Assembly (NCBI GenBank): GCA_004022145.1 | Contig: RCNU01000002.1 | Length of the DNA: 64,000 nt | Direction: 5' to 3' (one strand) | DNA from: Paecilomyces variotii | Taxonomy: Eukaryota | Shown here: piece by piece, positions 13,601-40,117 of the stretch | How positions within the stretch are numbered: position 1 is the stretch's first letter | Layout: each line of letters opens with the position of its first letter | Translations under genes and position numbers: made by a program | The notes under the pieces: model-generated | The model's database searches: none | Told to the model about the DNA's origin: nothing | The model's input: the letters and a program-made list of their open reading frames with translations, nothing else

Positions 13601-13860
13601 TCTGGCTTTAAATCAATGTATATAGAGATTGGGGGTAATTCTGGATAGGCATGTAGGCCAACTGTGCGTGTCGCTCCAATCTGGGGTTAACCCCCATGCT
13701 TGGGTGTAGTGCAGGGGGAATGACGGGAGCCATAGCAACGGCAGGCGAAACTGTACGCGGGTGAGGTGCCTGGGAGCAGGACTGATGTTCTAGGGACAAC
13801 AGAATGAACCCATATATTGTGATAAGACAGCCCCTGAATCCCCGTTCCTTTCAACTAGCA

Positions 13861-15417
13861 TTAACAGTCAAATTGCGAGATCGGTGAGCGCTTCACACAA
13901 GCTTGAATACAGTCCAGTGTTTTCTTCAGTGATAGCAAGGTCACTAGCGTCTGTCGCATCACTGCCTTGGCTAGTACGGATGTATCATGGAAATCCATAG
14001 CATCTGTTGAGGCATTATTACACCAACCAAGGCAATATTGCGCGGGGAGACCGATAAGCTTCTCCAGGGTATGTAGCTGATGCTCAACAACACGGATCGT
14101 CATCAATATGTCCTGGCTGTGTGGCCGGGTGACCCCCTGAGCTGATCTTTGGGCTCTGGGGTCCATTGGGTTTAGTTCATCATGTGGCCGCTGAGGGTCC
14201 AATGCCGTTGATGACATTAGAGGGCAGCCAGTCTTCCCCGTGGGGTTGCCCGGCTCCGGGCTTGCATTCGCTAGGTCGTTTAAGAATTGAACAGTGGGTG
14301 AGAGGATAATGTCAAATAGCTCTCCAAGTTGCAGGTAGGTCGACAGGAGTATGAGTGTGACCTGGGGCGGAGCATTGGCTGAGAATACCGACGTAGGCAA
14401 TGTGCGATTCGACATGGGGCGAGAGGCAGCGTCCTCTGCCGCGCTGTCTTCACCAACCATGCCTGTCCAATCTACCGGCGATGGTGGCATTATCTGTAAT
14501 ACCAGAATGAATCTCATCGTAGCTATTACTGCCTTTCCCAGCAGCTTTGCCCGGGAGGAGCCGTCCGAGGCGCCGTCGCAAACGGGGGTGTCCAGGAAGT
14601 TCAGGTCCGGCGAGATGCCCTCGAATGTGCAGGCCCCGACGGGCTGAGTGGATAGATTGCAGGCCTGCGCCCTCAGCTCGTCCAGCTGGCGCGATACACT
14701 CCCTAGCGCATTCATAAGGGACGTCGTCCAGTCGCTGTTGGGCCTCCCGGTCTTCGACTTCGTATTGGTGTCATTCCTGTAGTGGGTGCTGCTATCGGGG
14801 GTATACGGTCGCTTGCAATTGCTTCGGTGTAGGTTGGCATACGGGCTGGGCTGCATGTCAGGGATCCCGATATCAGAGCCGCAGAGCTCGTCCGGATCTT
14901 GAAATTCCTGTGCGTGAGAGTCATTGCCGTTGTTGGTATGGGTGCCATCTAGGGAATTGTGGCATGTGGTTCGCATGGTCGCTTCTAGAAGGCCATATGG
15001 CTCATAGATATCTTCCAGTTGCATGCATAACATACCGTCAGACTCAGATAGGCCAGGATCTGTGCAAACACCAGGGCGCTGGTTGTGCGACTCGTGCGTC
15101 AATTTGCACTGGCTGTGAATTGGCATTCCAGCAGCACCAGAAGCTCCCATTGACCTACAAGACATGGAAGTGTTGGGGAAGTCCCCGGTAACCATTTGTT
15201 GGTTGGATTGGGCGTGATGCATATCTTGACAGATGGCGGTGTTGACGTGCGATTTATGCTGGGTTGGCGGCCTCCCCAAGAGTCGACCACTGCTTGTGAC
15301 GCAGCGAGCATCTACACGTAGGCAGCGATCACAAGGGGCTTCTTCAGTGTTGCGTGTGCACCGAAGTTTCAGGTCCCTGCAGCGATCGCAAGCATATCTT
15401 TTGGCATTGCTGGTCAT
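13861..15417 (-). CDS. Zn(II)2Cys6 transcription factor, probable pathway-specific regulator
   Basis: N-terminal ACDRCRDLKLRC-x7-CDRC-x6-C binuclear cluster right after ATG 15417; single long ORF; adjacent to the PKS-NRPS. Confidence 0.9.
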   Translation of the reverse strand: MTSNAKRYACDRCRDLKLRCTRNTEEAPCDRCLRVDARCVTSSGRLLGRPPTQHKSHVNTAICQDMHHAQSNQQMVTGDFPNTSMSCRSMGASGAAGMPIHSQCKLTHESHNQRPGVCTDPGLSESDGMLCMQLEDIYEPYGLLEATMRTTCHNSLDGTHTNNGNDSHAQEFQDPDELCGSDIGIPDMQPSPYANLHRSNCKRPYTPDSSTHYRNDTNTKSKTGRPNSDWTTSLMNALGSVSRQLDELRAQACNLSTQPVGACTFEGISPDLNFLDTPVCDGASDGSSRAKLLGKAVIATMRFILVLQIMPPSPVDWTGMVGEDSAAEDAASRPMSNRTLPTSVFSANAPPQVTLILLSTYLQLGELFDIILSPTVQFLNDLANASPEPGNPTGKTGCPLMSSTALDPQRPHDELNPMDPRAQRSAQGVTRPHSQDILMTIRVVEHQLHTLEKLIGLPAQYCLGWCNNASTDAMDFHDTSVLAKAVMRQTLVTLLSLKKTLDCIQACVKRSPISQFDC

Positions 15418-17381: not shown

Positions 17382-20300
17382 TCAATCACTTCTCAGCAAC
17401 CTCGGAAAGCTCAAGGTGTCCTCCTTTCCAAGCCCCAGGAATACAGCGGACATCGCACTCGACAGTCCCATTTCCCCGGCTTTCCTAACCCAGTCTTCCA
17501 AATCCACTCGCTGGATAGGCTTTCCCAATTCTGTAGACAGATAGTCCGAGATATGAGCCAGATCCAGCTCAATATCGCCTGACTCATGGATGTAAACGAC
17601 GTTCTCGCCATGAGATGGAGCCATGACGGCTCGTAAGAGTCTGTCAGTCACGGTCTTGGGGTGTACAAGATCCACATATCCTGTGAGTGATACCGCCACT
17701 GGCACGGCACAAATCCGCCGCGAGAAGGTTAGCATGTTCTGCAGAACATCTGCAACGGGTGTTTGTTCCCCCCGGTCAGGACGGAGCACACTCGAGGGTC
17801 GATGAATGTAGACCGGGAGCTTGCACATGGAGTTTACTTTCTCGAGGTACACTTCGCTGGCCCACTTAGAAGAGATATATCCGTATTCCCCGTTGCACGG
17901 TGGCGGTGAGTTCCGAACCGATATTTCTGGGAACGTACTTGACGCCGTGTACATGGAGACTCCCGCCGTGGAGACGTAGTGAAGGGGTACCCGTCTTTTC
18001 AGGCATAACCGCGCTAGGTCTTTTGTCGAGTTCACGTTGGAGCCTCTCATGGAAGCGTATGTCTTGAGATGAGATACATCGGCCCCGTTGTGGATAACCG
18101 CATCGGCTTCAATACCAAAGATGCGATCGATGTCAACCTGGGCTAAACCAAGATTCGAAGCACGGAGGTCGCCTTCCAAGCACTCAACTCGCGGAGACAG
18201 GAGAAGCTCTCTCCTTCCTTCGTCGGTCATATTTCTGTTGGCGATGCATATAATCTTCTCAACGCTACCCTGCTCAAGAAGTCCACGAAGCAGATGCTGT
18301 CCCAGGAATCCAGTTGCACCAGTCAAAACAACTATCCGAGGAGGACACCTGGGAGATGGCAGTTTTACGTCTTCCACTGGTGCTTCCAGCTCGAACGCGG
18401 TCTCGCTCGCCCAATCAATACACCTAGGATGATCTAGATACGTCTCATCCAGCGCATCGCTCTCCGGTTCCATCGCACGCTGGAGGACATTGGCCATGCC
18501 ACCTAGCGTGCTCATTTTGAACAGATCCAGCAGGGTAAGAGAAACATGAAATGTGTCGATAATCTTTTGCTGCAGCTGTACCAACAGCATGGAGGTGCCA
18601 CCGACGCTGAAGAAGTCAGACGAGGGGTTTATATCAACAATCCGAACCACTTCATCGGGGAGAACGCATTGCCAGAGGCTGAGAAGTCTGGCCTCTGCTT
18701 TTGAGAGCGTAGGAGTCAAAGTGGTCGTATCCGCACTGATAATGCTACTTAGTGGTCCTCCAGCGATGTCCAAATCCTCAAGAGCGCGCCTATCCAGCTT
18801 TCCCGCTGTTGTTCTCGGTAGATCATGAACCGGAACGAGAAGGGATGGTCGCATGGCACGCGAAAGAGGTAGTTTGCCCAGAATCGTTTGAAGGATCGAT
18901 CGTGAGTTCAAGTTTTTGTCTTGCCTTTGTTCGATTGAGAAGACACAGAAAGCGACCATGTACTTGGATTCTGCCTGTTCTTCGTCCTTTGATGCCGACC
19001 AGTCGGTGCGCACGCACGCCGCCACATCGACAAGCTGGCCTTGAGAGGCTTTCAGTACGGTCTGCTCTACGTCTCTAAGGTCAATTCGGATCCCGTTCAG
19101 CTTGACCTCAGTGACATTGCTAAGACGGCCCTTAAGGATGAGGGTCCCGTCATCTTTCAAGTAGCCAGCATCACCTGTGCGATACATAGTAGTCCAACCG
19201 TGCCGGATATACTCAGTGGTTGCAAACGGGTCCGGAAGAAAGGATGTTTTCGTCTCTTCTGCATTGTTCAGATAGCCTTTCGCGACCCCAACGCCGCCAA
19301 TGGCAACTTCACCGGCTAGGCCCAAAGGTAGTAAACTCTGCATGCTATCGAGAATATAGAAGGACTCATTCGCAGATGCCCGACCTACGGGCACAGCATC
19401 AGCGTATTTGTCGGGATTGGCATAATCAAGCTGGATCTTGGACGACCCGCAGGTCGTCTCTGTCGGGCCATACACATTGAAGAGACGAAGTTTGTCTGCC
19501 CTATTGAGACTCCTGAATCGTTTAAGCAACGGCACTGTGACGGGCTCTCCTGCCACTAAGGCTAGTCTCCAAGGCGATTGTTGAATGATGCCCACATGCG
19601 CATCACGAAGCCAGCCCCTGTACTCCGTCGGAGTGGCATAAGTGGTAGTCACTCTTTCGTCACAGAGTAGCTTGGCCATGGCTCGCCCATCGGCCCTCAG
19701 AACATGGGAAGCGATGTGTAACCGCGCACCAACTGTGAGTGCCAGGAACAATTGCGTGACGGAGAGGTCGAAGCTCCAGGAGCTCTGCTGCAGCACAACA
19801 TCCTCCCTGTTGAGCCCATAAACGACTTCGCAGTGCGCAGATTCGTGTCGCAAGCTTTCATGAGAAAGAACTACCCCCTTGGGTGTCCCCGTGGTGCCAC
19901 TAGTGTAGAGAACCATGGCCGGTGAATTGGGGAGTGCAGTAGTAGGAAGAGATTGAGTGTGTGTGTCAATAGCGTTAGATACGTTGATTACGGCACCGCG
20001 AGGTGGCAGCTCTCTCACCATATCCAGCGTAGACTCATTAATCAAGATGGCCGCAGGCTTACAGTCGTGAACCATGAGAGCCAAGCGGGAGGGCGGAGTC
20101 GCGACATCAAGGGGAACATAGACTGCACCGACCTTCAGAATCGCCACAACAGAGGCAACCCAGAGAATTGTTGGATTCTGGTATACGGCGACTCTAGAGC
20201 CGGGTGCGACACCCTCCTTCAGCAGTGACGATGAAATGCTGTTAATCTGCCTGGAGAGTTCCTGGTAAGTCACGGGGTTATTGACGCCGTCGGTTACCGC

Positions 20301-23300
20301 GACCCGGCCACCGATGGATGGGAACAACGCATCCAGTTTGTGTACGATTGTGTTCGTCGAAGTACTTTCAAAGCCAGGGCCTTTTATCCGCTCAGTATCT
20401 TCAACACAAAGAGGTATCTCGTCTCTTTTTACTTACCATGACCAACTGTAAGGGCCTTCGTCAAATCGGACTGCCTAAACTTCCAGTCGCCATTCGCTTG
20501 ATTGTCTGGCCGATCAGCAAACTCCCGCAAGATGTCTTCATAGCCATGCGCGAGGGCCCTGGCCGCGTCAGCATTATAAAGGGAATCTTGAACATTGAGG
20601 ACAATCTTTGTGTCCTCGTCACCATGTGTGGTCGTGTTCGTAATGATCGTTAAGGCAATGTCGTACGGCAGCTCAGCCTGGTCCTCAGCCATCATCTCGC
20701 AGTCACAGTCTAGAAACTCTCGTCCGCTCTCAACGCTCGTCTCAGCGTAGTTGATAAATGCCTGCGCCAGTGGTGAGTGGGTGGCTTGCCTGGAGACCTT
20801 GAGCTCGTTCAGAAGAATCTCGAGAGGGACCGCGTTGGAGAGAGCCGTGTGGCTCTTCTCGCGTGACTCGATTATGGCATCTGCAAAGGACTCCGACGCC
20901 CGCGCCTTCATTCGAAGGGGGAGCATGTTTAAGAATGGACCAATTCCCGTCCACATGTGTTCGTCTCGACGACAGCCGTCGGCAAAACCGATGCACACGT
21001 CTTCCGTAGCCAGCCAACGTAAGAGCAAAACCTTGAAGGCTGCCAGGTGAAAGTGAAACGGCGTGGACCTGTACTTGCGCGCGACGCGACGGATCTTGGC
21101 TGTAAGCTCGCTGCCAATACGGAACTCGCATTCTGGAAGTCCGGTGCGAGAGCTGTATTTCTCAAGAGGGCGGCGCATCGAGATGGTGCTTCGATGCAGG
21201 GAAAGGGGCTCGGGAATAGTGGCAAATTCGTGGCGCCAGAATCTCAGTGCATCGGCCCACTTGCCTGAGGCGTGCGCTTCATACAACGAATTGGAGTAGT
21301 CGAGGTATTGAAGGGGAGGCAAGAGATTCCCGATTTGGCTTTTGTAAATGCGAGCCAGGTCAGACATGAAGATTTCGGTGCTCGCTCGATCGAAGATGAT
21401 ATGATGCGTGCCCAAGGCAAAATAGTGATCAGTTGGAGAGTACGATAAAAGCAATACTCTCACTGTGTGGCCTCTACTTAGATCGAATACCGTTTTCTTC
21501 AGATCATTGTACGCGTTCGAAAGGTCGGTTTTAGTAAAGACGCGGCGATGCTCCAGCTCCAAAGTCGGTTCGGCAAGCACACCTTGCGTATGGACCCCAT
21601 CCTCTGTGAAGAAACGAGTCCTCAAACCCTCGTGACGCTCTCCCAAAAGGCGCACAGCCCTGTGGAGGTCGGGTACTCTTATCTCACCGCTAAGATGAAC
21701 CATGCCTGTGTTGTTTAGAGTTGTCTTGTCATCCAAAAGCTCGTGCACAAACATAAACACGGACTGTGTATAGGAGAGGGGGCCGGACCTCGCTATCGAA
21801 ACCTCTTTCTCCGGAGGCGGAGTTATAATCTGTGTCTCGTTAGTGTCGGATGTGGTAGCGCTATGGCTATCGGGGGTGTTTCTGGACGACGGTGTCGTGG
21901 AAGTATTTTTCATGTCTTCGGGTGGTGGCTGCACCTCAGGGACGCCGGCTGACGGACTTGCATCGGACAAACCCGGCGTCAGGTTAGCGGGAATTTCATT
22001 GAGCGCCTGATCGATAAGCTGCTGGAGCGAAACTCCCTTGATAATCTTCAATGCCGGAATATTAACCTGGAAATGGGTTAAAAACCACGAGCGTATGCGG
22101 ACCGCAACGAGGGAGTCTAAGCCGAGCTCGTCTGTGCGAACAGCTGGTGTCATGACATAGTCGTCTCCCATGTGGAGCATGGAGCACATTTCCTTAAGAA
22201 AATTGTCTATTAAAGATAGTGGTTAGGGCAGGAAACCATGGCTTGAATCGCTGAGCACTTACCAGTGATAACTTTGTGCACATCTGCAGTCGTCTTAGCA
22301 TCGGCCAGTTGATCGATGATCGGACCAACAGCCCCGGCAGTATCTGATGCTTTCTTTGAATGGGTCGCATTCGAGTCTCTGATAGTGAGACAGGCGAACT
22401 GTGGGAAATTGTACCAGAGAGGTCGGTCGGGCGCGTCGGCCGGAAGTGGTATCAACCCAGTGGTGATGTGCCATTCCATCTCGGAGCCTGGAACCACAGG
22501 GCTGGCGTTGATTGCCTCGGCGAACAAACAGTGAACATCAGATTCAGACATCCCTAGCAAACCCCTCTCTGCCAACGGGCGGGTCAAGGCATCGCCGATT
22601 TCTCGGGTGATGTATCCCGTCCCGAGGACGGGGCCCAGGTCAATAACGGACGCAGCCAGACCACGACGCCGCCGCTTTTGCGCCAGGCCGGCCATGAAAA
22701 AGTTAGCTGCAGAGTAGTTTGCCTGTCCGGCGTTCCCGGTGATACTGGCTGCAGAGGAGAAAAAGATAAAGAAGTCCAACGGCGAGTCATGGAAGAGGCG
22801 ATCGAGATTGATGCTGCCGTCAACCTTGGGGCGCAGAACCTTGACGAGGTCTTCCAAGGACATATCCCGAGTCAGAACATCGTTGAGTACCATGGCGCCT
22901 TGGGCAACACCAGCAATGGGAGGCAGGTTACTGGTGATGTTGGCATGGGTCTTTACGAGGGAGTCAAAATCCGTAATGTCACTGCCGCCGTTAGGTCCGC
23001 TGCCGTTAAATTTAAGAACAGAAGATGACAACTTACCAACTAGTGACAAAAGTGGTAGCCCCTTTGCGAGCCGCTTTTTGAAGCCACGCTTCACTGACCT
23101 TGGGGTTACGACTAGATATGACAATATATCTGGCGCCATTGCGTATCATCCAGTCTGCAAGTGAGAGCCCCATGTCTCTAGAAAGTCCCGCAAGCCAATA
23201 AGTCCGGTCATCCCTGAGAGAGACATTGACTGGCTGCACGGTTATGGGAAGCGCCTCGAAATCGGTCCAGCTCACAATTGTCACGGGTGAATGAGCACAG

Positions 23301-26300
23301 GGACTTGTATCCCCGTCCCTAGTTAATGCGCTGATATTGACTTCTTGAAGAGTCACACGGTCTGCCGCATCATTCTTGGCTTCATTGAACGTCAGGTCCA
23401 TGGCCGTATGAAGCAAATCTTTCAGCGCCATAGAAGAGACAAGGTCTTTTCGTGATTCGGTAGCGAAGATGGTGGACTTGCTGAGAATTTTAATATGGCT
23501 GGGGAAGCAGTTTATGAACACGGACGACTCGCGGTTTTCAGCCGCGAAATCGATCAGCAGGGAAACGTTCAGAGGGAACAATGACTCGAGTTCCGACTGT
23601 CTTGTGTACTCTTCAATATGAGTCCAATTGTTCTTGGCTGCCTCATCTCGCGATGAAGTTGTGAACGTGATGTCCTTTGCCCTTGACGAGCGAGCCAATA
23701 ATGCACCCACAATGGGGGGAGGGTCGTGAACCACCACAGCCCGATGTGTGGCAAGTTTCGCTTCAATTGTCAAGAAAGCTAAGCTAGAGACAGCCAAAGT
23801 TAGGATCAAAGACTCTGAGCACATTCGAAGGACCGCGGAGGGTATCTCTATCAGATTTGACGTCGCCACGTTGGCCAGTGATGTTACGGACGACGTCAGG
23901 CCTAAGTACTTGAGGCCTGTCGCTGCGCAATACCCTGACACAGCGAAAGCGCTCCCCCATTCCGTTCGGACCGCAAAGAGGCTGGAGTAGTTAATCTTCA
24001 CCGATGCGGTTGATCCCAACTCATCGAGTCTATTGGACTGCTGTTGGTAGAGGGTATAGGTCGCTGGATAGCCGCTTGGTTTATGTAGTAAGACTGGACT
24101 CAGCTGAGGTCTGACGGCACACTCAACCCGCCGCAGTGAGGAATTATACCTAGCGTTTGCATCTACTAGAGGCTCCAAACGTGGGATCCGCTGGCGCCCG
24201 TCTGCATCGATGACAATCTCCGACTCCACTGAGTACAACGTATTGTTGGTCTTGTTTTTGGGGTCTCGGTAATGCACCGATCCGGCGACCTGGAAGCGCA
24301 GAACCGCCTCAGCGAGCGCGCGAGGATCAATCTTGGAAGGAGGGATGCCTTCAAAGTCGACAAACTGGTAGCGAAGCTCAGGGGCCTCCCAGATGGACGG
24401 TCGCACGAACCCCGGAGCCATGTTGCAGTAAGGATTATCAAGGAGACGATTATGCGTGACCCAAACAATCGTCTTTTCGGATCCAAACACCGTCTTGAGG
24501 CTCTCTAGTCTCGGGGCTGTCATGTCCTTAAATACGGGCTGATCAAGGTCTTGCAGAACTAAAACAGTTGACGACTTGTCAACCTGGTCGTGGTCAAGGT
24601 CTTCAAGGAGTCCAACTCGGATGATGGCCTGGTGGCAGAAGGGTCTTAGAAGCTTCTGCACTCCATCAATGAGTCGCGATACGTGAAGGCTTTGACCCCC
24701 GACAATGAATAACTTCTCCAACGTGCCGACAGATGACTTCTTTGAAAAGAGTGGCACACCAGCCGCCGCCTGTGACATGAGCGGCTGCCGGACAAAGTCA
24801 ACCCAGTCATCTACGGCCTGGGACACCAGAACTGAGTTACAGAAAGGCATAGAATCATTGTTGGGCGTCATCGTGTCAACCCCAGAGAAGCCAGTCCTCC
24901 GAAGAATAGCATCCCACTTGGACTCGCTCACAGCAGGGCACCATTTTCGTCCCTCGTCGACACCTTGCCACCATCCTGGGAGACAGCCGAACAGGGCTGT
25001 GTGACGGATCAAGTCAACGTTCGTTATCTCATAGAAAATGAGGTATCCGCCCGGCCGAAGCAGCGATCGCACTCTCTTCAATGTCTGTTCTAGACTCTTG
25101 GTGGCGTGCAGAACGAGGGATCCGATCACAATGTCGTACGAGTGCTGATCAAAACCCTGTGCCGCTGTGTCCTGCTCCAGGTCCAACACGCGGAAGGACA
25201 TTTGGTCTCGGTAAGCGGCGAACTCTGCCTGGGCATCATCGAAGAATCCCGCTGATACGTCGGTGAATGTGAATGAACAAAAGTTATTCCCAATGAGCTT
25301 AAACACCTCGCGGGTCGCTCCACCCGTGCCAGCGCCAACCTCGAGAATATTGGCTCGGGGGTATCGGCGGGTGACCTGCAGAACGGTATCAGCGAGGACA
25401 GTCACTTGCCCCATCCCCAGGGCCTTGGCATAGTACTCGTTGAGCAGGCCATCCACCATGAGATGCTGAAGCATTGGAGTCTCCCCGCGAATAGCCCTTG
25501 GCATTTGTTCGCCCACGATGTGCATCGCCTTGACCTCGGGCAATTCATTATACGGCTGTGTCAGGGTCTTGATATCATCCAAGGTGTCGTTGGCCCAAGC
25601 CGGTTTGCCATACCGATGCTTACCTTTCATAACTAGATCGTGGGTGTACGCAGCCCAGCGGAGATATGCCGCGTAGGACGGATCCAACCGCCCTGGGTGG
25701 TCGGCAGGGACTTGGTCATCCAGCTGGCGCAGGTAGAAGTAGTGGCCTCGCTCGAGAATCTCTGCCAGCTTTCGTTGCTCTGGGGTCGCAATGAATGGAT
25801 CTGGGATATCTGCGTCAGGTCCTGCATTCACCCAGCGCGTTTGATAAAACATAGTCCGATCGTCGTCTGGGGTCGCAGGAGAGAAGGGCACGACATGGAG
25901 CCCCTCCACCTGGACTGCTGAATAGGCCCCGTCCCCGCCATGGATCTCAGCATCACCATGGAACCCAGATGACCTGTCCGCCATTTTTACTTGGTCATCG
26001 CTGATCACCGAGACGAAAGGAACGGGCTTTGTTGTCCAATGGCGCGCGCAAAGGGCCGGGTTGAGTCGGATCCTTTTGATATACGTGGGCAGGTGCAATG
26101 ACCAGAGCGTTCCATCTCTCGGGTAGCTGTAAGCCAGGATAACTGAGTGAATAGCGGCATCCAGCATGCCAGGGTGGACCGTCATGCAATTCTCGCCATC
26201 GTTGTATTCGGCCAATGTGGTGCTGAGAACTCCCACGGCCTTTCCAAGCCTTCTGCTTAACCCCGACAACGCTCTGAAAGGACCCGTATATCCGTAGCCC

Positions 26301-29300
26301 ATTTCCTGCAGCGAGGAATAGAAGATGTCGGTCGGGACATCGGCCATGGCATTGTCCTGTTTTCCATCACTGGCAGGTAAGGTTCGCTCGCTAGGGTCGC
26401 CCGGAATGACACGAATCATGCCACTTGCTGCTAGTTCCAGAGAGCCGCTTGAGGAGTAGAACTCGTAAGTAAAACTGCCTGTGGCCGTCGAATCATGATG
26501 CGACCGGTTGATACCACCAATGGAGAATCGTACTTCAATACTGGAACTGGAAGAATCATCGAATACCATGGCCTGATGAATCACGAGATTCTCAACCTCA
26601 ATAAGACGAATAGCCTGGGCATCTGTCAGGAAAGGGGCTGCCTCCAGCGCCGTCACAGCGTATCCTGCCGCAGGAAAGACGCTCTGGCCCTGGATCTTGT
26701 GGTCTTGGACCCAGGGTATATCCTGGGGGCGCAAAACAGCTTTCCATGAAAGGTTTTGCGGGGAGCTGGAGCTACAAATATTGCCAAGAAGAGGATGGAC
26801 GGGAGAGCTCCTGAAACGAAGATTGCGAGATGTGTTGGACTCATGCCAGTGGCCCCCATTGTGGTTATGGTTCCATTGGTACCGAGGAAGGTCCGCCAGG
26901 AACCGACCCTTTGATGATCCTAAGCCACTCAATGCGTTCTCGTATCTGTCAAAGTTGACGAAATCACTTTCTACATGAGTCCAAAGGTATCCAAGTGCGG
27001 ATGAGAAACTCCAGGCTGCCTCAGTTCCTCGCTCCAGGAGCCCGGTATAGGGCAGCTGGCCAATGTTCAACTGCTCAAGGATTTGCCGCACAGGTCCCTT
27101 CAAAGCCGGGTGTGGTCCCACTTCGACAATTGCATCGAAAGGTCCTAGCTCGGTCAGGGCTCGCTCGACAGCCTGTTTGAATAAAACTGGCGACAGGAGG
27201 TTATCGACCCAATATGAGGCACCCAACTCCGTCTCCGCCATGTCTAACTCAACCACTACACTCGATACCCACAGGCAATCGGGTTGGGGCGAGGACTGAG
27301 GTGATGCTGTCTGAAAGCTCCGCACAGAACTCAAGTATGGCTGTGAGCATGGTATCATGTGGTGCGAATGGTAAGCCTTGTCGACTCTTAGCAGACGGGC
27401 CGTTTTCCCTTCGTCCTCAAACAGCGCAGCAATTTCCTCCACCGCGTCCCTATCGCCAGATAACGTAATGCTGTTAGGAGAATTGCAGGCCCCGACATTG
27501 ACTCGTCCTCGAAAGAACTCGTCGTGGCAGACTTCGCTTGCATCTTCCATGCTGGTGCTAACGGCCAGCATGGCACCCGGTGCACCGTTAGCTGCTCCGC
27601 CCAGGCGAGTGCAGTGAAAGCCACGGTAATACGCAATTCGTATCGCATCAGCCGCAGATAGGCGGCCTGCAGCGTACGCCGCGCCAATTTCACCGGAAGA
27701 ATGACCGACGACGGCGGCGAATTCCACCCCGGCTTCATGAAGAAGATCCACGAGAATCAGCTGAATGGCTGTGCATAAAGGCTGCGATATCTCAGCATCA
27801 CCGACCTTAGTCTCGGATACATCCGCCAGGAGCTCTTTCCGAAGCGTCCAATGAGGGCGGTCTTGTTCGTTGGGGAGATTCGCAAGCTCAGCATCCAGCT
27901 TGCTCAGTATATCGGACGCAAATTTGGAGGTTTCTATCAGCTGAGCGCCCATTCGCGCCCACTGAGCACCCTGCCCCGTAAAAATACCCAAGATTTTTAC
28001 CTTATGTCCTCTTGCACTAGCGGAAGACCCCACGGTTGTCAACTTCAGCCTCTGGTCAAGCTGTAACATCTTTGAGTCACTGCTGGCGATGTTCTCTAGA
28101 CTGGTGTGCAACATCTCGGCAGAGGCGGCCGATAGTGCGACTCGAAGCGGAAGACGGGACCGTCGTGAACGCAATGACCAAGCAAGGTCTGCGAGACGAA
28201 TATCGGGATGTTCCGATAGATAGGTAGCATGAGCAGCCAGACTGGAGACCAGAGACTCCTTCGACTGTGCGGAAAAGACAAATGACCTAACCATATCACT
28301 TGCGCCGTCTTTGTCCACATCCTCATGCATCCCGTCCTCCAGGCTTTCCAGGATAACGTGGGCATTTGTACCGCCAAATCCAAAGCTATTGATGCTAGCA
28401 CGTCTGGGTTGTCCTGGGGCTACCATTGGCCACGGTATGAGCTCACTGGCAATGCGAAGGTTTCTGCACCAAGGTTCAACGCGCGGGTTAATTGTGAAAT
28501 CCAAGACCTGGCCATCAAGTATCCGGTTGCCGTTGGGTGGGATCTCGCCGTGACTCAAGGCCTGCGCAACCTTTACGATGGCCGCAATTCCGGCAGTGCT
28601 CTCTGTATGTCCGATAACTGTTTTGATGGAGCCCACCACGATCTTCTCGGCACCATTCATCTCCATGGGCTGATCGTTGCTGTTTTCGAAGAAGGCTTTA
28701 TGGATAGCCTCTGCCTCGATGGGCTATGTACATGGTCAGCTTGCAAGTAGCACTCTCGCTGTATAGGCAAGAAAGGGGCTGGAGGGGCACTTACGTCTCC
28801 TGCCGGTGTTCCAGTTCCATGAGCTTCGACGTATTGGCATCGATCTGCCGATAAAGCCAAGTCCAGCCCAGCACGGGCATATACGTCGCGGATTAATTGG
28901 ACCTGAGCCTTGGCTGTAGGCATTGTGATACCGGGGCTTCGCCCATCTTGGTTAACACCGGACTCTCGAATAAGACACTCGACATGGTCGCCATCTGCTA
29001 ACGCCTGTTCGAGGGTTTTGAGCACCACGGCTGCGACCCCGTCTCCGCGGGCGTATCCATTCGCATCATTGCCCCACATCCGGGAGCGTCCATCGGGCGA
29101 CAGCATCTTCAAGTTGCTCTCGTAGATGTAAGGCTCAGGCCCCAGTAGAAGGTTGGTCCCCGCTGCCACTGCGACAGTGACCTCGCCGGAGCGGAGGGAC
29201 TGCACTGCTTGATGCAGCGCCACGAGTGACGAAGAACACGCCGTGTCGACTGTGAGCGACGGGCCGTGCCAGTCGAAGAAGTAAGAGATTCGGTTGGATA

Positions 29301-29822
29301 CCATGCTGCGAGCAACACCTGGATCCAATGAAATTAGTACGCGGCATTCAGTAGACATTGGACCATCTTACCCGTGCCGTGATACAACGGGACGCTTTGC
29401 AGGTCCCGATACTGCTGGTACTCATAATCACCGTACATCATACCGACGAATACGCCAGTATCGGAACCCCTGAGCCCATCAAGTGTCTGTCCAGCAGCTT
29501 CCAGGCTCTCGTAGACCGTCTCCAGGAGTATGCGCTGTTGGGGGTCCATGGCAGCCGCTTCGGCGACCTGGAGATTGAAAAAGCGAGCGTCAAAGCTAGC
29601 GACGTTCTCCTCGAGCAGGTACGAGCGGCGAACATTACTATGGCCCGGAAACTGGTGGTCTGAGTGGTAAAACCCTCGCGGGTCAAATCGGCCTGCGCTC
29701 AGGAGGTCTCGTGAAACATCTCGGGGATTGCAGAGGAGGTCCCATAACTTGGAAGGGGTGCTCGCACCACCCGGAAATCGACAGCCAGTGCCAACAATGG
29801 CGATGGGCTCGCTCTGTGGCAT
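17382..29822 (-). CDS. Hybrid highly reducing PKS-NRPS (KS-AT-DH-cMT-ER0-KR-ACP-C-A-T-R), at least 5 introns
   Basis: [60 protein letters not shown] and HPGMLD; c[80 protein letters not shown] and YISSK. Introns near 29320-29370, 28727-28794, 22982-23037, 22207-22262 and 20380-20436 join the six ORF segments. Confidence 0.97.
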
Positions 29823-30289
29823 GTCGGACTGATCGTGGATTGTAGGTTAGATGTTGGAAGTGTAGATAATTCGATAATATTGGGTTGGAACAACGATTTC
29901 CCCGGAGGACGGTTCACTATAGTGTCTATAGCTACTGACATGTCCCTTTCATATCATTACAGAAATCAAAAAGGCCATAGATATGGCTGGGCCCCTCTAA
30001 GTGCCCGGAAGGAAGGTGATCTCCCGGAGAGTGAAGTTATCGGGACCCATCGCTACAATCCCGGCGTGGGCCTTCCGATCAGTTCGGAGGGTTCGAGCCA
30101 AGACAAGAATGCCCCGAGCCAGTTTCCGTGAACCCATATTCGGACGCCAGCTGCTATGTTGGTCAGAGGGCTTGAAGCGGCACAATGACGAAGACAAAGT
30201 AGATAGATACAAATGTGGGCGACGGCGCTGCTCCATAACATTGACGCGCAACGCAGTCAGCGGCATAGCACGCAAATACAACTTCAACA

Positions 30290-31435
30290 ATGGGCTCTCT
30301 TGCGCGGGATTCCATGGACTGCCTTATCCAGGGCCCCTCGGGCCAAGGACAGAGGGCCGTTCGTTCACGCCCTGAAGTAAAGGCGCCCCATGATGTTTTG
30401 GTCTGCGTCTCTGCCGTGGCCCTGAACCCAACGGACTTCAAGTCGCCGGCGTCCAACCCTAGTCCAGGGGCCATCATGGGTTGCGACTTCATGGGATACG
30501 TCGTCTCAGCCGGCGAGGACGCGGACAAACTTTTTCCCTCCTCCACGCGAGTTTGCGGCTTCGTTCACGGCTCCAACCCTGGCAATCCCGACAAGGGATC
30601 GTTTGCGCAGTACCTTGTGACCGACTCCCGCCTGTTGGTCCGAGTTCCCGATAGCTGGACCGATTTGGACGGCGCAGCTCTCGGCGGGGTTGGATGGGGT
30701 ACCATTGCTCTGGCCATGGAGGTATCGCTACGGCTCTCTGGGCGTCCGTCCAAACCAGCTGCTCCTCAAGAGGATGGCTCCAGGGTTCCCGTGCTGGTTT
30801 ATGGTGGTGCCACGGCCACCGGCACCATGGCATGCCAGATACTGTCAATGTATGTATATCGTTGCGTTTTCCCTTCCAGCCGCAGGGGCCCATCCTAACT
30901 CGCCTGTAGGTCCGGTTACAAGCCCATTGCCACAGCGTCCAGCATCAGCTCGTCCCTGGTGCAAGATTACGGTGCCGCTGCAGTTGTACCGTACTCATCT
31001 GCCAGCTGTGGGGAGACCATTCGTGACCACCACACCGGCGGGAATTTGCGAAGCGCTCTGGACTGCATCAGCTCGCCAGAGTCCGTGGAATGCTGTTTCA
31101 CGGCCCTGGGTCGCATCGGGGCACACTACGCCAGCCTTGACTTCATCCCGGACGATTGGAAGACGCGCAAGGCCATCAAGGTCTACATGCCCCTGACTTA
31201 TGCTCTCCACGGCCACGAGATTCTGTTCAAGGGGCCGTATCATCGGGATGCAGACCCTGCCATGTTGGAGCTGGGCAGGCGGTGGCGAGACGAAGTGCAG
31301 GGCCTAGTAGATGCTGGACGCCTTCGACCGCACCCCGTTCGAGAGGTCCAAGGGAAGTGGCAGGGGATTATTGATGGACTGGAGATGATGAAGGCTGGAG
31401 AGATTCGAGGCCAGAAGCTTGTGGTAGCCTTGTGA
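30290..31435 (+). CDS. Trans-acting enoyl reductase (LovC/TenC type MDR), intron about 30849-30909
   Basis: AVALNPTDFK, GCDFMG, GSFAQY, VLVYGGATATGTMACQ, ALDCIS and C-terminal GQKLVV; divergently paired with a PKS-NRPS that has no recognisable active ER motif. Confidence 0.93.
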
Positions 31436-32087
31436 GCTGGATGACGCTTTTTAGATGAGATATTATATATTAGGTATATATATACTCGGCGCCGTGCTAA
31501 GTGGTAGCTCCCTTAGCCAGCTAGTAAATTAGTCAGCAGGTCCGGGGGTTAACTAACTAGTTAGTTAACTAGCGTAACTCCCGCCGACCTATCTAGTATT
31601 TAGTTTCAATATAACTATCTAACAATAACTATCTAAATCCTAAATTAGTTGCTTACCGAGGTCGGGAGCCCCATGGCCCGTGCTCGGAACCAATCCCGCT
31701 CACGGACGACATGATTTCGATGGCCGATGCGCACCGTCTAGCGTCCCGATCCGGAGCCGGTAGGCGGGAACCTGTGCCGGGGCGCGGTACCGGGTTTCCA
31801 GATGCAGAAGTATGAAACAGGTCTAGAAGCTCCGAATGGAGAACACCAGTTAAGTATGATTGCACCAGCCCAAGGCTACAAAAGAATGATATCTTTACTT
31901 CTGGGAAAGGCTGCCGACTCGGGTGTTCAAGATAATAATGGAGAACTGCTGGGGGACAGAAGAATGTGATCCACGTTTTGCAACACAGAGGACCATCCAC
32001 GACTCCGAAGATAGTGCATGATTATCTCAATGTTTTTCTACATGTCTCTGACTTCTCGTGCATTCCCACTACCTCGGTCATCGTTCA

Positions 32088-33842: not shown

Positions 33843-34468
33843 CCCGGCTGTGTCTTGTTCTCCGATAGTCCACGATGTACGCTTGCGTGTTGGTGTGTGT
33901 ATGTGTGTGTATGTGAATGTAAGAATGTGTAATTGCAGAGGCGGCGGCTAACCCATTGGCTGTTCTGAGATGTGACTTTTAGTTGCTATCCTGTTGAGTG
34001 ATCCAGGATAAGAACACTCAACAGTCTCCAATAAAGCATTCACGCTCAAAACCTACTTATGTAGGACTTTCCCATGCAATAATCCTATGAACATGCAGGT
34101 CTAGTGCTGCAGTCTCGGACAATTATCCTTCGCAAGGCCTCTGCTTTACCAACCCCAAGCCTCCGATGCTCCAAAACCCTCCTAGGGAATGCTCCGACTC
34201 CACCAGGGTTCATCCGAAGCAGGCCACGAAAATTTCCATTTAGCTAGTGGGGTTGTCTGAATCTGTTGAGGGACTCCAGCTTTTTCTGTCGCAATAAGCA
34301 ATACTTGGAAAGATGTTAAATTCCAATGGCAACGTCCGCCAAGCGTACTGGTGATAATATCTGTATTTGCATGTACCAAGGACTTTAGAGACGAATTATA
34401 ACTATATAGGGCGATTAGTTAACTGCTTCACCCTAGTACATATCCATCCAAACCACGGTAACACCGTT

Positions 34469-35843
34469 CTAAGGAGACGTTTGGATGACCTGCTTGCCCG
34501 CTCGCTGGATAAGTTGGTTCTTGATCTCGTTGGGCTTCTCGGAGTAGGCCCGCTTCCAAATTTCCACCTCTCCACCTCCGTAGATGACTCCCACGCGCAT
34601 TGTCGAGAGCAGGTTGTGTGCGGCGTTTGAGTGCTGGTAGACACCGCCATTGAAGGTGGCTGTTGCATCCTTCCCAATGGCCGAGGAGATGAACGCTTTG
34701 CCGCCGGGGTGCTCTTCAATGAAGTCAGCCACATCATGAACGACCCCTGCGATGACTACCAGGGCTCTCCCATCAGCTTTTGCCGACTCGGTTTGGAAAT
34801 CGTCCCATGTGATGATGGGCAGCTGAGAAATTGGGGTGCCCCAGTCTAGTTTAGACCGCCAGGCGTCGAGCTTCTTTTGCTCCTGCTGTAGTCGGCCCTT
34901 TTCAATTTCGTTCTGTTTAAATTGCTTGAGGTCATATGCCAGGCCAAGTTGCTTCCACGTCCAGATGGCCCACTTTGTTGGGTCATACTGCCACCACTCG
35001 ATTGCATTCCGGTAATCCGACGGGAACTCATGATGGAAATTATGGTACCCTTCCCCCAATGTGACGAGGGCCGTGATAACATGATCCCGGGGTGAGTTTC
35101 GATCGTCAAAGGGCTGGTCTCCCAGCCAGTGAGCCAAAGAATTGACGCAGAAGGTAGCTTGTTGCACAAAGGTCGCCCGTAGAATACCCGCGTAGATAAA
35201 GCCACCCACCCAATCGCCCCAGCCAATGCCGCAAACTAGAGTAGGGAAGATAAGGCCCATAAATAGAACAGCCTTGATATAATTACGGTGCTGCCATATC
35301 ACAATCGGGTCCTTATTAAGGTCGGTGATATCCGCCCGACCAATGCTCTTCGGGTTTTGTTTCATAATCATCCAGCCAAGGTGGGAATACCAGAAGCCTT
35401 TGCGCACGGAATAGGGGTCCTTTGTAGTGTCAGTATACCGGTGATGGGCACGATGGCCCCTTGACCACCACCGAATCGAGCCCTGGACGGCGCCAACGCC
35501 GACCGCCGCCAGATAGATTTTGAGAGGGGTTGAAGCTCGGTATGAAGAATGTGCCCAGAGGCGATGGTATCCTATCGAGAGATGTCAGGGTCTTGTTCCT
35601 CGTCGCCCACAGAACCTTGACGTACGCACCGGCTGTAATACCCAACCCAGTATTAAAGTAGTAGAAAATGGCAAAGGCAGCCGTGGCTCGCTGTAAGGGA
35701 TAATGATAGGCAGCGATGAAGCCCATGAGTGGGATGACTATGATAAAGAAGACACTCAGCCAGTTAACATGCTGGTACCAATTTCGCCATGTGATGGGCA
35801 TCTCCGTGATGTGAGCTGTTTTCGTGGGTTTCGAGTCTGCCAT
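34469..35843 (-). CDS. ole1: Delta-9 acyl-CoA desaturase with C-terminal cytochrome b5 domain (Ole1/SdeA/SdeB family), intron 35572-35629, 438 aa
   Basis: After splicing: [39 protein letters not shown] (three His boxes), VNSLAH, and b5 heme motifs HPGG and HSNAA. The symbol names the family; orthology to the housekeeping copy is not established. Confidence 0.93.
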
Positions 35844-36456
35844 TTCAGGATCATGCGAGTGTGTATGTGTGTTCTGATTGTTAGATCACGTCGGACGACG
35901 GGACCCAAATTTTAAACCCGAGGAAGGACATCTCACTAGGGAAGACGAGGAAAATATCACATGAGGTCTACGTATTATGTTGGGTGTTGGTGCCGTTTCG
36001 TTGGGCGTCGTCGCAATGTACAGAGAGGTAGCCGACCCTCGGTCAACAGAAGATTCCACGCCGCAAGGGGTACATTATTCCCAACGCCCCAACATATACT
36101 ACGGTGCTTGAAATCATACGAATGGTACAGTCGACATGTCAGCTTCCATCAGTGATTATTAATAATATAGAGTAACTACTGCGTGCCGCTTGGCTGTGTT
36201 ATTTGTTCAAGCGATTACAGTGTCTACCAAAAACAGGAAATTTTTTTCAAATTAAGTTGTCGATACTAATGCTTTCTCAAGGGCTAGGGACTTGGAGATG
36301 AAGAAGCTTGAATTCTCTATCTATCTAGCTACTATGCGTGTAAAACCCTAACCGAATGCAGAAGGAGGTAGGCGATTGCCTACTAGGTCCCTAGGGACCG
36401 AAAATGCTTCAAATGAGAGTCAGGCTGCCTTAAGAGAGGTCTCCCAGTAGGCATGC

Positions 36457-37555
36457 TTACCCAACATACACCAACGTCTGCAGAATCTCAAGAAACTTTT
36501 GCTCTTCCTCAATGACGTGGTTGCCTTCCAGCGGTGGGCTCGGATAGAGTGCCTCCAAGGGAGTCTCGCGAATGCGAATAGTGACAGGCTGCTCGGTCGA
36601 CTCCCCCGGTGCTGCCACTACCTCGACAATATTACCCTCACCGAACTGCGGTTCGGTCATAATCTTGAATGTTTCCTCGGCGGCTTGTTCGGCGGTAAGG
36701 CGGATGCTGTAGCAGTATGTTGTTAGCTCGCGGCGGTCGACTGAACAGAGCGGAGTTCAAACGTACTCTGTGGGCAGAAGCTGGCCTCTGCAGTAATCGG
36801 CATCGAAAATTGGCGTCTATGCAAGATCTATAGATTAGTATGGAAAGGTAAAAGTAGAGGAATTGGAAGCTCGCCTTGACTGGTCCCAGGCAAACAGCAG
36901 CGTTGCGGATGCCAAACATCCTCCTCAGCGGGCCGAGACACTTGACCATGCTATTCACGGCCGCCTTGCTACTAAAGTACAGCGGCGACTGCATCAGGTG
37001 AACATATCCGCAGACGCTTGACAGCCATACCAGGTTTCCGTCAAAGTTCATCTCGGCGTCGGGGTGGTAGAACCAGTAGTTGAGGGCGATCTGTGCCAGC
37101 CGAATGGGCCCCATAGCGTTGACAGCATGGGTCTGGTACACGCCGGGGTTGCAGTCCACCTTGTCCCTCGCCGCTGGAGACACGCCGGGGGGCTGCCAAA
37201 AGGTGCTAGAGGGCGGCTCGTAGATAGCAGCGCCGTTGACCACGATATTTACCGTGCCGTATGTCTCGATCGCCTTGTCAAACAGCGCCTGAAGTTGGGC
37301 CCAGTCCGATACATCGGTCTGCTGGAATATGGCGGACGCCTTCCCGTTAATGCCAGGTACGGTACTGGCATCTTGTAGTGTCTTCTCGGCCTCCGGTCGT
37401 AGAGTGAGGTCGGCCATAACGACCGAGCAGCCCTCCTGCAACAGAATCTTGGTCAGGGCATGGCTGATGCCGGAGCCCGCGCCCGTCACGATGGCAACCT
37501 TGCCTTTGACACTGTACGCCGTGGGGGGGTGGTCTTGCGTTGGCTTTTTGTCCAT
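36457..37555 (-). CDS. Short-chain dehydrogenase/reductase (two introns; 3' end uncertain)
   Basis: KVAIVTGAGSGI Rossmann motif, TDVSDW, VVNGAAIYEP, catalytic YFSSK; introns 36817-36874 and about 36708-36765 give GPVK-TPIF..PTD-IRLT..EPQFGEGNIVE. Confidence 0.85.
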
Positions 37556-37727
37556 TTGGGGCTGTATCAAAGAAATGGATCAGTGAATGGACAAGCCGGA
37601 GGCAAATCGGGTAGCCGTACAGTAGCTGGTTCACTTTCGAAAAAGCAATGGATTCACTGCACTAGATAGCTGCATCTATCTCTCTTTTGTGGTTCCTCTG
37701 ACATTTCTATCCCTCTTGCAGATGAAC

Positions 37728-37789
37728 CCTCCGATAGAAGCCCCCGATAGAAGCCTCCGATAGAAGCCTCCGATAGAAGCCTCCGACAG
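37728..37789. repeat. 13-bp tandem repeat (CCTCCGATAGAAG) about 4.8 copies in the SDR/BVMO divergent promoter
   Basis: Read directly: cctccgatagaag cccccgatagaag cctccgatagaag cctccgatagaag cctccgacag. Confidence 0.9.
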
Positions 37790-38034
37790 TGGAAGGTTAT
37801 CGGAATGCGGAACTGGTACGCTCGAACAAATTTCCCACCAACACAGCAAGAGGTAGATAGATAATGGGCACAGAAACCCTTTGATGTAAAGAACTTACGG
37901 AGTAGGTGTCCGATCAACCTCCCGAGCTTTACATATCAGTCCACTGCAAACCGACTGTGGGTAATTGCAGCTCCCCTAATCCCTCATCCCGCAAGGACGT
38001 TACAATCAAGGGCTACTATTCAAAGTTGCTCCAT

Positions 38035-38056
38035 CTCTTCTTCTTCTTCTTCTTCT

Positions 38057-38088
<32 letters not shown>
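38035..38088. repeat. Compound microsatellite (CTT)n(CT)n just upstream of the BVMO start
   Basis: Read directly from sequence. Confidence 0.9.
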
Positions 38089-38093
<5 letters not shown>

Positions 38094-38107
38094 CACTTTG
38101 TGCAAGC

Positions 38108-40117
38108 ATGGTTCGATCTCCCAAGAGCGTGTCAGAGACCTGTGATCCCAGCCCCGTCCGGCAGGAACAAATTCATCGAAAGTATGCTGAGGAGAGGTCA
38201 AAACGACTGCGGGCCGAAGGTGTTGGTCAATATGTGAACCTCAACACCACTGATGACCTGCGGTTGAAACGGTTCTTACATGATCCGTGGGATCAGCGCG
38301 CTGAATCCCCAATCCGGCTCCAACCAGGTGCTCGATACAAGATAGCCATCATGGGCGCGGGATATGGAGGGCTACTATATGCCACACGGTTGCTCGACTC
38401 CGACGCCGGCTTGGAACCCCAAGACCTAGTCATCATTGATACTGCGGCTGGATTTGGAGGGACTTGGTACTGGAACCGCTACCCTGGGCTCATGTGCGAT
38501 ACCGAGAGTTACATCTACATGCCCCTGCTGGAAGAGACCGGCTACATTCCCAAACATAAGTACTCATACGGAGAAGAGTTGCGGGAGCACGCCGAGAGAA
38601 TCGCCAAGCAGTGGAAAATCGACGACCGGGCTATTTTTAGAACTGAGCTGCATCGGTGTACATGGAATGATGACCGCTCCGAATGGATTGTCGATCTGAC
38701 ACAGCGGTCACCTTCCCCCGATGGCGTATCCACGAGCGGCACAATCTCCGCGGGCTTTGTGATACTCTCCCCGGGCTTGCTAAATAGGCCAAAGCTTCCC
38801 AGAATACCTGGCCTAGGGACATTCAACGGACCAAACTTCCTCGCCGCCAGGTGGGACTACGCCGCAACCGGAGGCAGCCCATCGCGTCAAGAGCTCGACC
38901 AGCTGCAGGATAAGAAGGTGGGCATCGTAGGGACCGGAGCCACTGCCGTGCAGATAGTACCCGTGCTAGCCAAATGGTGCAACCAACTTTACGTCTTCCA
39001 GAGAACCCCCGCGTCGGTGGACGTGCGTGGCCAGCGACAGACGGAACTGGATGAGTGGGCGTACAAGATACGGACTGGTCCAGGTTGGCAACAGACCCGA
39101 CGTCGCAACTTCCTGGCGTTTGGAGCCAACACCGAGCCCAGCGAGCCGGTCGACATGGTATCGGACGGATGGACTCGCTTTCCATCCTACTGCGTCCTGA
39201 CCGGATGTCCCGCCGCAATGAACGTGACCATGGAGACAGCCACGGAGTACATCTCCGAGATGCATCGACTTGACCTCATTCGGTCTGATATAATCCGCGA
39301 ACGGGTCAGCGCCGTCGTTAAAGACGAGATCACGGCTGCGAAGCTCAAGGCCTGGTACCCGGGCTGGTGTAAACGGCCCACGTTCCACGACGAGTACTTG
39401 GAGGCGTTTAACAGACCCAACGTGCACCTCATCGATACAGACGGCCGGGGTCTAGACCGTATCGTTGACACCGGGATAATAGCAAATGGGAAGATGCACG
39501 ACTTAGACCTCATTGTGTTCTCAACTGGCTTTGAGGCCGGCACGTTTGGCAGTCCTGCGCAGCGCTGCGGCGCGCAGGTCTTTGGTCGCGGAGGCAGGTC
39601 AATGGATGCCAAATGGGCGGACCCAAGAACTGCGGATAGTCAGATATCTCTAACGGTGCATGGAATATGTGCCAGGGACTTCCCCAATATGTTTTTCACC
39701 AGCAGCAATCAGGCCGGGATTGCTTCTGTCTTCACACCCACATTGGATGCCTTCTCGAAACACGCAGCCTTTATCATATCAAAGAGCCTGAAAAGGCTAA
39801 AGGATACAAGAAGAGAGGGTGATTCATCGATTGAGCACACAGTTGTTGTGGAGCCCACATCCGAAGCTGAAACCGTTTGGGCTAACCGCGTGCTCTCGGC
39901 CGCTGCTTCACTGGCACCCATAGGGGGATGCACCCCTTCATACTTCAATGCCGAGTCCAAAATAGACAGCATGCCAATACACGACCAAATCAAGGCTGCG
40001 GCAACAACACGATGGCCCGCCGGACTCAATGACTTTGTTCTTCAATTGGAAGGCCTATGGAGCGCCAACGACGACAGTGACTTTGATATAAATATTGTTC
40101 GAAAGGGCCTAGATTAG
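38108..40117 (+). CDS. FAD/NADPH-dependent monooxygenase, Baeyer-Villiger (type I BVMO) family, intronless 669 aa
   Basis: GAGYGG (FAD), GGTWYWNRYPG, variant fingerprint FNGPNFLAARWD, GTGATAVQ (NADPH), FQRTP, WCKRP (catalytic Arg), STGF, CTPSYFN. Confidence 0.93.
   Translation: MVRSPKSVSETCDPSPVRQEQIHRKYAEERSKRLRAEGVGQYVNLNTTDDLRLKRFLHDPWDQRAESPIRLQPGARYKIAIMGAGYGGLLYATRLLDSDAGLEPQDLVIIDTAAGFGGTWYWNRYPGLMCDTESYIYMPLLEETGYIPKHKYSYGEELREHAERIAKQWKIDDRAIFRTELHRCTWNDDRSEWIVDLTQRSPSPDGVSTSGTISAGFVILSPGLLNRPKLPRIPGLGTFNGPNFLAARWDYAATGGSPSRQELDQLQDKKVGIVGTGATAVQIVPVLAKWCNQLYVFQRTPASVDVRGQRQTELDEWAYKIRTGPGWQQTRRRNFLAFGANTEPSEPVDMVSDGWTRFPSYCVLTGCPAAMNVTMETATEYISEMHRLDLIRSDIIRERVSAVVKDEITAAKLKAWYPGWCKRPTFHDEYLEAFNRPNVHLIDTDGRGLDRIVDTGIIANGKMHDLDLIVFSTGFEAGTFGSPAQRCGAQVFGRGGRSMDAKWADPRTADSQISLTVHGICARDFPNMFFTSSNQAGIASVFTPTLDAFSKHAAFIISKSLKRLKDTRREGDSSIEHTVVVEPTSEAETVWANRVLSAAASLAPIGGCTPSYFNAESKIDSMPIHDQIKAAATTRWPAGLNDFVLQLEGLWSANDDSDFDINIVRKGLD

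Follow-up and report, generated by a model that had tools for sequence, protein, structure and literature searches.

A co-conserved PKS-NRPS gene cluster of Paecilomyces variotii and its possible variotin-type product

The ccsA-G genes of Aspergillus clavatus form the cytochalasin E/K cluster, and an alpha/beta-hydrolase partner of the CcsE/PyiE type defines cytochalasan clusters. In the pnlt cluster of Penicillium citrinum, the polyketide synthase-nonribosomal peptide synthetase hybrid (PKS-NRPS) PnltA and an enoyl reductase that acts in trans (trans-ER) are described as making scalusamide A, an N-acyl prolinol (prolinol amide), after which the cytochrome P450 PnltC removes the exocyclic proline carbon (proline C1); crude-enzyme assays in that account favour D-proline, and homologous clusters are given for P. 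steckii, P. hetheringtonii and C. godetiae (PMC12076214). PKS-NRPS clusters of the PF1163A type carry a membrane di-iron oxidase, either a sterol-C4-methyl oxidase or an Erg3 homologue, for which the published account proposes a role in self-resistance (PMC11731387). Here we describe a PKS-NRPS locus of Paecilomyces variotii, seven genes that span 13.9-40.1 kb of a 64-kb stretch of contig RCNU01000002.1; this whole stretch was analysed and is called the window below. The locus is a real, co-conserved cluster. We lean towards a polyene of the variotin type as its product, an N-acyl-2-pyrrolidone that would be variotin/pecilocin, formosusin or a near congener, a prediction drawn from sequence comparison.

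The synthetase and its partner genes

The locus resembles pnlt, as that cluster is described in PMC12076214, in combining a PKS-NRPS that has a reductive R domain with a trans-ER, a P450 and a transcription factor, and its synthetase has the domain order KS-AT-DH-MT-KR-ACP-C-A-T-R of that type. The pnlt product is an N-acylated proline-derived ring whose exocyclic proline carbon is later lost, and we propose the same for the window. The two clusters differ in gene content: pnlt is presented as four genes without a Baeyer-Villiger monooxygenase (BVMO), a short-chain dehydrogenase/reductase (SDR) or a desaturase, whereas the window has all three. They also differ in the enzyme assigned to carbon excision, which is the P450 PnltC in pnlt, whereas the BVMO is the conserved partner in the family to which the window belongs.

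An initial annotation of this DNA had described seven contiguous genes in defined orientations, with no unrelated gene among them, and Pfam, PDB-relative and tblastn evidence bears this out. To survey the gaps and flanks, six-frame open reading frames (ORFs) of at least 55 aa were compared with Pfam at E<=0.01; 123 of the 151 listed were submitted, the 28 dropped being known genes and short overlaps, and the frames at 5149-7689, at 156-674 and beyond 62600 lay outside the scan. Only two of the 123 matched Pfam, both to the right of 42 kb. Between the seven genes, the only unassigned frames are ones that overlap known genes.

The highly reducing PKS-NRPS gene (17382..29822, minus strand) is about 12.4 kb long and encodes about 4050 aa in six exon pieces. 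Pfam recognises KS, AT, DH, C-MT, KR, C, A, T and R domains; the ACP gave no separate Pfam match at E<=1e-5, and we write the architecture as KS-AT-DH-CMT-KR-(ACP)-C-A-T-R. In tblastn searches, the 4058-aa homologue from A. thermomutatus was covered over residues 5-4055, collinear with the six window pieces, and with two homologues the full synthetase length was matched at 70-94% identity per piece.

The A domain (19269..20309, minus strand; Pfam AMP-binding, residues 42-388 of the frame 17382-20432) carries the code DLTYLAVCGK, its ten positions placed by hand with GrsA numbering. Among 20 homologues, of which the most distant is 42% identical, 16 have exactly this code, those of P. steckii and Colletotrichum graminicola included. 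Three others (A. wentii, Stachybotrys and Thelonectria) are one residue off, and Zopfia alone differs throughout. Because the code is common to the presumed pnlt relatives, the window A domain is predicted to load proline, and we infer that the synthetase belongs with the proline-loading pnlt family.

In R domains, the Tyr-x3-Lys motif separates reductive release from Dieckmann cyclisation. The R domain of the window synthetase (17607..18332, minus strand; Pfam NAD_binding_4 and Epimerase, residues 701-942) contains TGATGFLG and GYxxSKW, and the NADPH motif and Tyr-x3-Lys are kept in all 21 synthetases compared. With these motifs intact, release should therefore be reductive and not of the Dieckmann type.

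The trans-ER gene (30290..31435, plus strand; Pfam ADH_N) has one intron near 30858-30910 and is LovC-like. LovC itself (PDB 3B6Z) is the best solved relative of both exons, which align to its residues 35-189 and 188-360 with E-values of 1e-20 and 2e-30. As the initial annotation had proposed, this gene forms a divergent pair with the PKS-NRPS gene (starts at 30290 and 29822), and the SDR and BVMO genes form a second one (starts at 37555 and 38108). The P450 (32088..33842, minus strand; 584 aa; Pfam p450, E 1.7e-47) has the haem motif FGLGVRACFG. Its best representative among 50% identity clusters is KAI9150468 of Paramyrothecium foliicola, at 59% identity; neither P. citrinum nor P. steckii occurs among the seven best-scoring named representatives of the 150 listed. 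The SDR gene (about 36457..37555, minus strand; Pfam adh_short) has approximate intron boundaries near 36760-36880. Its last exon is readable in the sequence, and its best solved relatives include NAD+-dependent 15-hydroxyprostaglandin dehydrogenases.

The type I BVMO (38108..40117, plus strand; 669 aa) was identified by homology to PDB 5MQ6, the Pfam match alone being weak. The gene and its end at 40117 stand as first annotated; its start at 37865 does not, since that position opens only the stop-to-stop frame and the first methionine lies at 38108. Its alignment to 5MQ6 (E 1e-178) spans about 600 residues and takes in the N-terminal extension; identity, as estimated from the printed alignment, is about 55%. 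The PDB title of this entry is "pyridine nucleotide-disulfide oxidoreductase-like protein", and we take it to be PockeMO, the polycyclic ketone monooxygenase of Thermothelomyces thermophila. Matches to cyclohexanone and phenylacetone monooxygenases have E-values of 1e-41 to 1e-44.

The BVMO shares its FAD and NADPH motifs with 5MQ6. The Rossmann motifs IMGAGYGG and GIVGTGATA are kept, as is GGxWxxxxYPGxxxD, in the form GFGGTWYWNRYPGLMCD. The fingerprint of type I BVMOs is FxGxxxHxxxW[P/D]. The window protein departs from it with FNGPNFLAARWD (38822-38857, residues 239-250), in which leucine replaces the histidine that 5MQ6 retains. Leucine is also found in all eight orthologues and in five further relatives, including A1CSG1 of A. 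clavatus; three more relatives have methionine or isoleucine, and histidine is kept in 7 of the 23 proteins compared.

A scan of metagenomes with the BVMO returned five loci at 35-55% identity and no orthologue. On one contig (1-12000), a BVMO 55% identical to that of the window lies a few kb from an unrelated highly reducing PKS that is only 30% identical to the window PKS; that contig holds another cluster with a BVMO of this subfamily.

The Zn2Cys6 protein (13861..15417, minus strand; 518 aa) scores 26.8 bits against Pfam Zn_clus, for which the cutoff is 21. Its first methionine and six-cysteine motif are readable in the translation, and its start codon has been revised. It is likely the pathway regulator, assigned to the cluster by position only.

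The initial annotation had compared the locus with cytochalasan clusters. The likeness to ccsA-G lies in the PKS-NRPS, the trans-ER, the P450 and the type I BVMO, which both have. A cytochalasan-type cluster whose hydrolase and Diels-Alderase have been lost, or lie elsewhere in the genome, would account for the PKS-NRPS with a reductive R domain, the trans-ER, the P450 and a BVMO of the broad 5MQ6 subfamily. However, no alpha/beta-hydrolase was matched by Pfam in the 123 gap and flank ORFs or in the larger frames, in agreement with the initial annotation, and no Diels-Alderase was identifiable, in a survey without a profile or sequence of that family. The synthetase is of another family, a wide fungal one, with another predicted amino acid, its A code being the one common to the presumed proline-loading relatives, and none of the 28 full-length fungal PKS-NRPS entries in a list of 120 bears a cytochalasan name. 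The best A. clavatus match to the BVMO is A1CSG1, at 53%; it was considered as CcsB and rejected, its accession differing from that of CcsB. A cytochalasan pathway is thus highly improbable here, and the comparison pointed to the wrong neighbourhood: homologues with this A code come from species for which the proline-loading pnlt cluster, or homologues of it, have been described.

Co-conservation and the proposed product

A lack of co-conservation had been named beforehand as a refuting condition; the synthetase, BVMO, desaturase and P450 are co-conserved. Over A-T-R, the window synthetase is 80% identical to that of A. thermomutatus, 74% to those of A. campestris (with A. candidus in the same 90% cluster) and A. 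carbonarius, 70% to that of Penicillium atrosanguineum and 65% to that of A. unguis. A. carbonarius, P. atrosanguineum, A. campestris, A. candidus, A. taichungensis and A. unguis have BVMO orthologues at 70-79% identity, and two further BVMO matches reach 80-82%.

Consecutive NCBI accessions served as a proxy for gene order in other fungi. By this measure, the synthetase, BVMO and desaturase lie close together in P. atrosanguineum (KAJ5318336, KAJ5318338 and KAJ5318341), A. campestris (PKY00833, PKY00831 and PKY00827), A. candidus (PLB35835, PLB35833 and PLB35828) and A. carbonarius (OOF97571, OOF97569 and OOF97566). A. taichungensis has a BVMO (PLN84683) near a desaturase (PLN84687). In A. 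thermomutatus, the synthetase (RHZ44289) and desaturase (RHZ44284) share one 25,980-bp contig and no BVMO was found, while A. unguis has a synthetase (KAL4811323) and a BVMO (KAL4811321) and no desaturase of the cluster-linked clade. Cluster genes are 2-7 accession numbers apart in these seven species. Synthetase and BVMO are also near each other in two more remote cases (49-54%), at a distance of 7 accession numbers in Pseudovirgaria and of 5 in Paramyrothecium, and in Paramyrothecium foliicola the P450 KAI9150468 sits between the BVMO and PKS-NRPS homologues.

Several of these lineages make variotin-type compounds. P. formosus is described as a consistent producer of variotin (PMC2789542), A. 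candidus as a source of (R)-variotin, formosusin A and candidusin (PMC8733401), and A. unguis as a source of variotin B (PMC8948696); variotin analogues are attributed to A. viridinutans in the title of a cited paper (Omolo 2000). These producers belong to lineages in which an orthologous cluster is present, namely section Candidi, A. unguis, section Fumigati and Paecilomyces. The initial annotation suggested an undescribed pathway. At the level of the genes this probably holds: full-text searches found no described cluster of the same gene set, and no variotin/pecilocin cluster or molecular target (subscription journals and supplements lay outside the search). The product, in contrast, is probably not new, because orthologous clusters sit in genera and species that make variotin-type compounds.

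The structures of variotin and candidusin, as given in PMC8733401, combine an N-acyl lactam, a C-6 methyl, a C-8 secondary alcohol and E-olefins. These features agree with what the C-MT domain, the trans-ER and an oxygenase acting after the PKS would supply. Candidusin is C17H27NO4, from which loss of water would lead to C17H25NO3, the formula expected of variotin. A C-methyl group on an even-numbered carbon requires an MT domain, and the saturated tail requires a trans-ER. C-8 is also even-numbered, so its hydroxyl would not derive from the KR and an oxygenase is needed, for which the P450 is the obvious candidate.

We propose the following route. The highly reducing PKS and the trans-ER would build a short chain, C-methylated once, that has a saturated tail and contains a conjugated triene. 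The NRPS module would join this chain to proline, as the A code common to the pnlt relatives suggests, and the R domain, whose motifs are those observed above, would release an N-acyl prolinal or prolinol. The exocyclic proline carbon would then be removed, and oxidation of the ring carbon would give the lactam. For this step we prefer a route in which the BVMO turns the aldehyde into a formate ester, giving a hemiaminal that the SDR would oxidise to the imide, because the pyrrolidone is common to variotin and variotin B and the BVMO is the family-wide partner of the synthetase; cleavage by a PnltC-like P450 is the alternative. By standard polyketide logic, the P450 would install the allylic C-8 hydroxyl. 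The Zn2Cys6 protein would control the cluster.

Several points weigh against this assignment. The predicted proline loading draws on a code shared by presumed orthologues. In older work the pyrrolidone is traced back to glutamate, possibly through gamma-aminobutyric acid (GABA); if GABA were loaded directly, this too would give the ring and would leave the BVMO without an obvious role. The chain of variotin B from A. unguis is described as longer and unmethylated, with no hydroxyl (PMC8948696), and orthologous clusters would therefore differ in product detail. Neither the synthetase (best match 80%) nor the BVMO (best match 82%) drew a match from P. variotii, although desaturases of that species did match, so the cluster would be strain- or species-specific within Paecilomyces. 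In four runs labelled as metatranscriptomic RNA-Seq, all from one study, 74-97% of sampled words of 30200-40150 were present; assembled on 21000-40900, the reads gave unspliced contigs of up to 27 kb with no joints. These contigs look like DNA in the library and are neutral on transcription.

All four runs have C>T at 31876 and three of the four lack two bases at 36022, between the desaturase and SDR genes; both look like strain differences from the window. Two simple repeats were skipped in read mapping, one at 33884-33926, 5' of the P450 start, and one at 38027-38102, a CT-rich stretch that reads as poly-Ser/Leu just 5' of the BVMO start codon.

The cluster could instead load proline in the manner of pnlt and make something other than variotin, such as another N-acyl pyrrolidine, a prolinol or an alkaloid of the oxaindolizidine type, oxidised by the BVMO, P450 and SDR. 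It matches pnlt in its domain architecture and in having a trans-ER, a P450 and a transcription factor, and the A code is the same in the P. steckii and Colletotrichum homologues. In addition, A. carbonarius and P. atrosanguineum carry the cluster and we met no variotin report for either, which also counts against a variotin-type product. Yet the orthologous clusters at 65-80% identity belong to A. candidus, A. unguis and section Fumigati, which together with Paecilomyces are the reported variotin-type producers; pnlt as described has none of the BVMO, SDR and desaturase; and the P. steckii synthetase is only 45% identical to that of the window over A-T-R. We regard such a product as a tentative alternative and continue to favour a variotin-type compound.

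The embedded delta-9 desaturase

The gene at 34469..35843 (minus strand; Pfam FA_desaturase and Cyt-b5; intron near 35582-35603) encodes an Ole1-type delta-9 acyl-CoA desaturase fused to cytochrome b5. Its histidine boxes HRLWAH, HRAHH and HNFHH and the cytochrome b5 motif HPGG are intact. The protein is 74-78% identical to annotated stearoyl-CoA desaturases, 99.2% identical to a P. variotii protein and about 86-88% identical to the cluster-linked orthologues of six other species. The proposed scaffold does not require it, and it would be an additional, cluster-linked copy of a housekeeping enzyme, possibly self-protective. Clusters of the PF1163A type offer a parallel in that a housekeeping-type lipid-pathway oxidase stands beside the PKS-NRPS; there it is described as a sterol-C4-methyl oxidase or an Erg3 homologue, whereas here it is a delta-9 acyl-CoA desaturase (PMC11731387). 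The literature searched contained no report of a desaturase as a cluster-linked resistance gene, with subscription journals and supplements again outside its range.

In a maximum-likelihood tree of 49 sequences, the window copy and all cluster-linked copies fall in one clade of 22 sequences, with support of 100/100 and a stem of 0.19, whose members are 81-99% identical to the window copy. Elsewhere in the tree stand two further Eurotiales groups, one of Aspergillus (A. oryzae, A. avenaceus and the A. unguis copy) and one of Penicillium (P. citrinum and P. steckii). A housekeeping-enzyme copy is thus found inside the cluster, co-conserved with it and in a distinct clade, and the embedded desaturase may be a self-resistance copy.

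The desaturase could also be a bystander: an ordinary delta-9 desaturase, the second of its kind in Eurotiales, would just happen to lie here, in which case the cluster proper would have six genes. Clade members also come from species with no orthologue of the synthetase or BVMO among the matches listed, at least eight of them named (A. ibericus, A. sclerotioniger, A. sclerotiicarbonarius, A. felis, P. glabrum, P. bovifimosum, P. samsonianum and P. verhagenii), and the same is true of P. variotii; this tells against a functional link. The clade is set apart from other Ole1 proteins by just one strictly diagnostic residue and eight near-diagnostic ones, and A. unguis has the cluster without a clade copy, a desaturase of the Aspergillus group (KAL4811312) lying nine accession numbers from its BVMO. 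On the other side stand the strong support of the clade, its stem and the position of its members, which are 3-7 genes from cluster genes in six other species of four lineages (sections Candidi, Nigri and Fumigati, and Penicillium). In the window the desaturase sits in the middle of the cluster, in a gene order unlike that of the other species. We consider a bystander possible but doubtful, and a self-resistance copy a reasonable reading of the gene. That variotin-type compounds block the fungal delta-9 desaturase, with the Ole1 copy giving protection, and that the BVMO and SDR make the pyrrolidone from prolinal, is as a combined proposal unlikely.

Two observations concern desaturases elsewhere. 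A sequence labelled "Aspergillus niger" groups with copies from section Fumigati (A. thermomutatus and A. felis) and not with section Nigri, which could be a mislabelled assembly or gene transfer. In A. pseudonomiae (KAE8405491/492), a desaturase of a different clade has an accession next to that of a 5354-aa NRPS, which is oddly listed in the desaturase's 90% cluster. The 5354-aa protein was considered as a related PKS-NRPS and rejected; it is a four-module NRPS without a desaturase part.

Flanking sequence and significance

The right flank carries housekeeping genes, as first annotated, identified here as a protein kinase A (PKA) regulatory subunit, a forkhead/FHA protein and Ten1. Repeat relics had been claimed on the left; these come down to a pair of 63-nt inverted repeats (10301-10363 / 10765-10827) and a 31-nt direct repeat, which give the claim only weak support. 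There is no signal of repeat-induced point mutation over the left flank: two indices flagged one of the five 1-kb bins in 9001-14000 (10001-11000) and 3 of 64 across the window.

A frame for a major facilitator superfamily (MFS) transporter (8369-9499, minus strand; Pfam MFS_1, E 2.7e-30) lies 4.4 kb to the left of the Zn2Cys6 gene, from which it is separated by a stretch without a recognisable ORF. It could be the exporter of the cluster or unrelated to it. The left end of the window contains an amidase fragment (frame 675-1712) and a two-exon gene of the VIT1 family of vacuolar iron transporters (3003-4135), neither of which looks related to the cluster.

Variotin has been used on the skin as pecilocin. 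It is a broad-spectrum antifungal that was described in 1959 (PMC8733401). If the locus is truly the variotin cluster, the pathway would be open to heterologous rebuilding and engineering, and the conserved pairing of synthetase and BVMO, which at least nine species of fungi possess, would acquire a defined part in cutting proline back to the lactam. Delta-9 desaturase is essential in fungi and, to our knowledge, is not hit by current drugs. The embedded Ole1 copy would then offer a testable hypothesis for the target of variotin.

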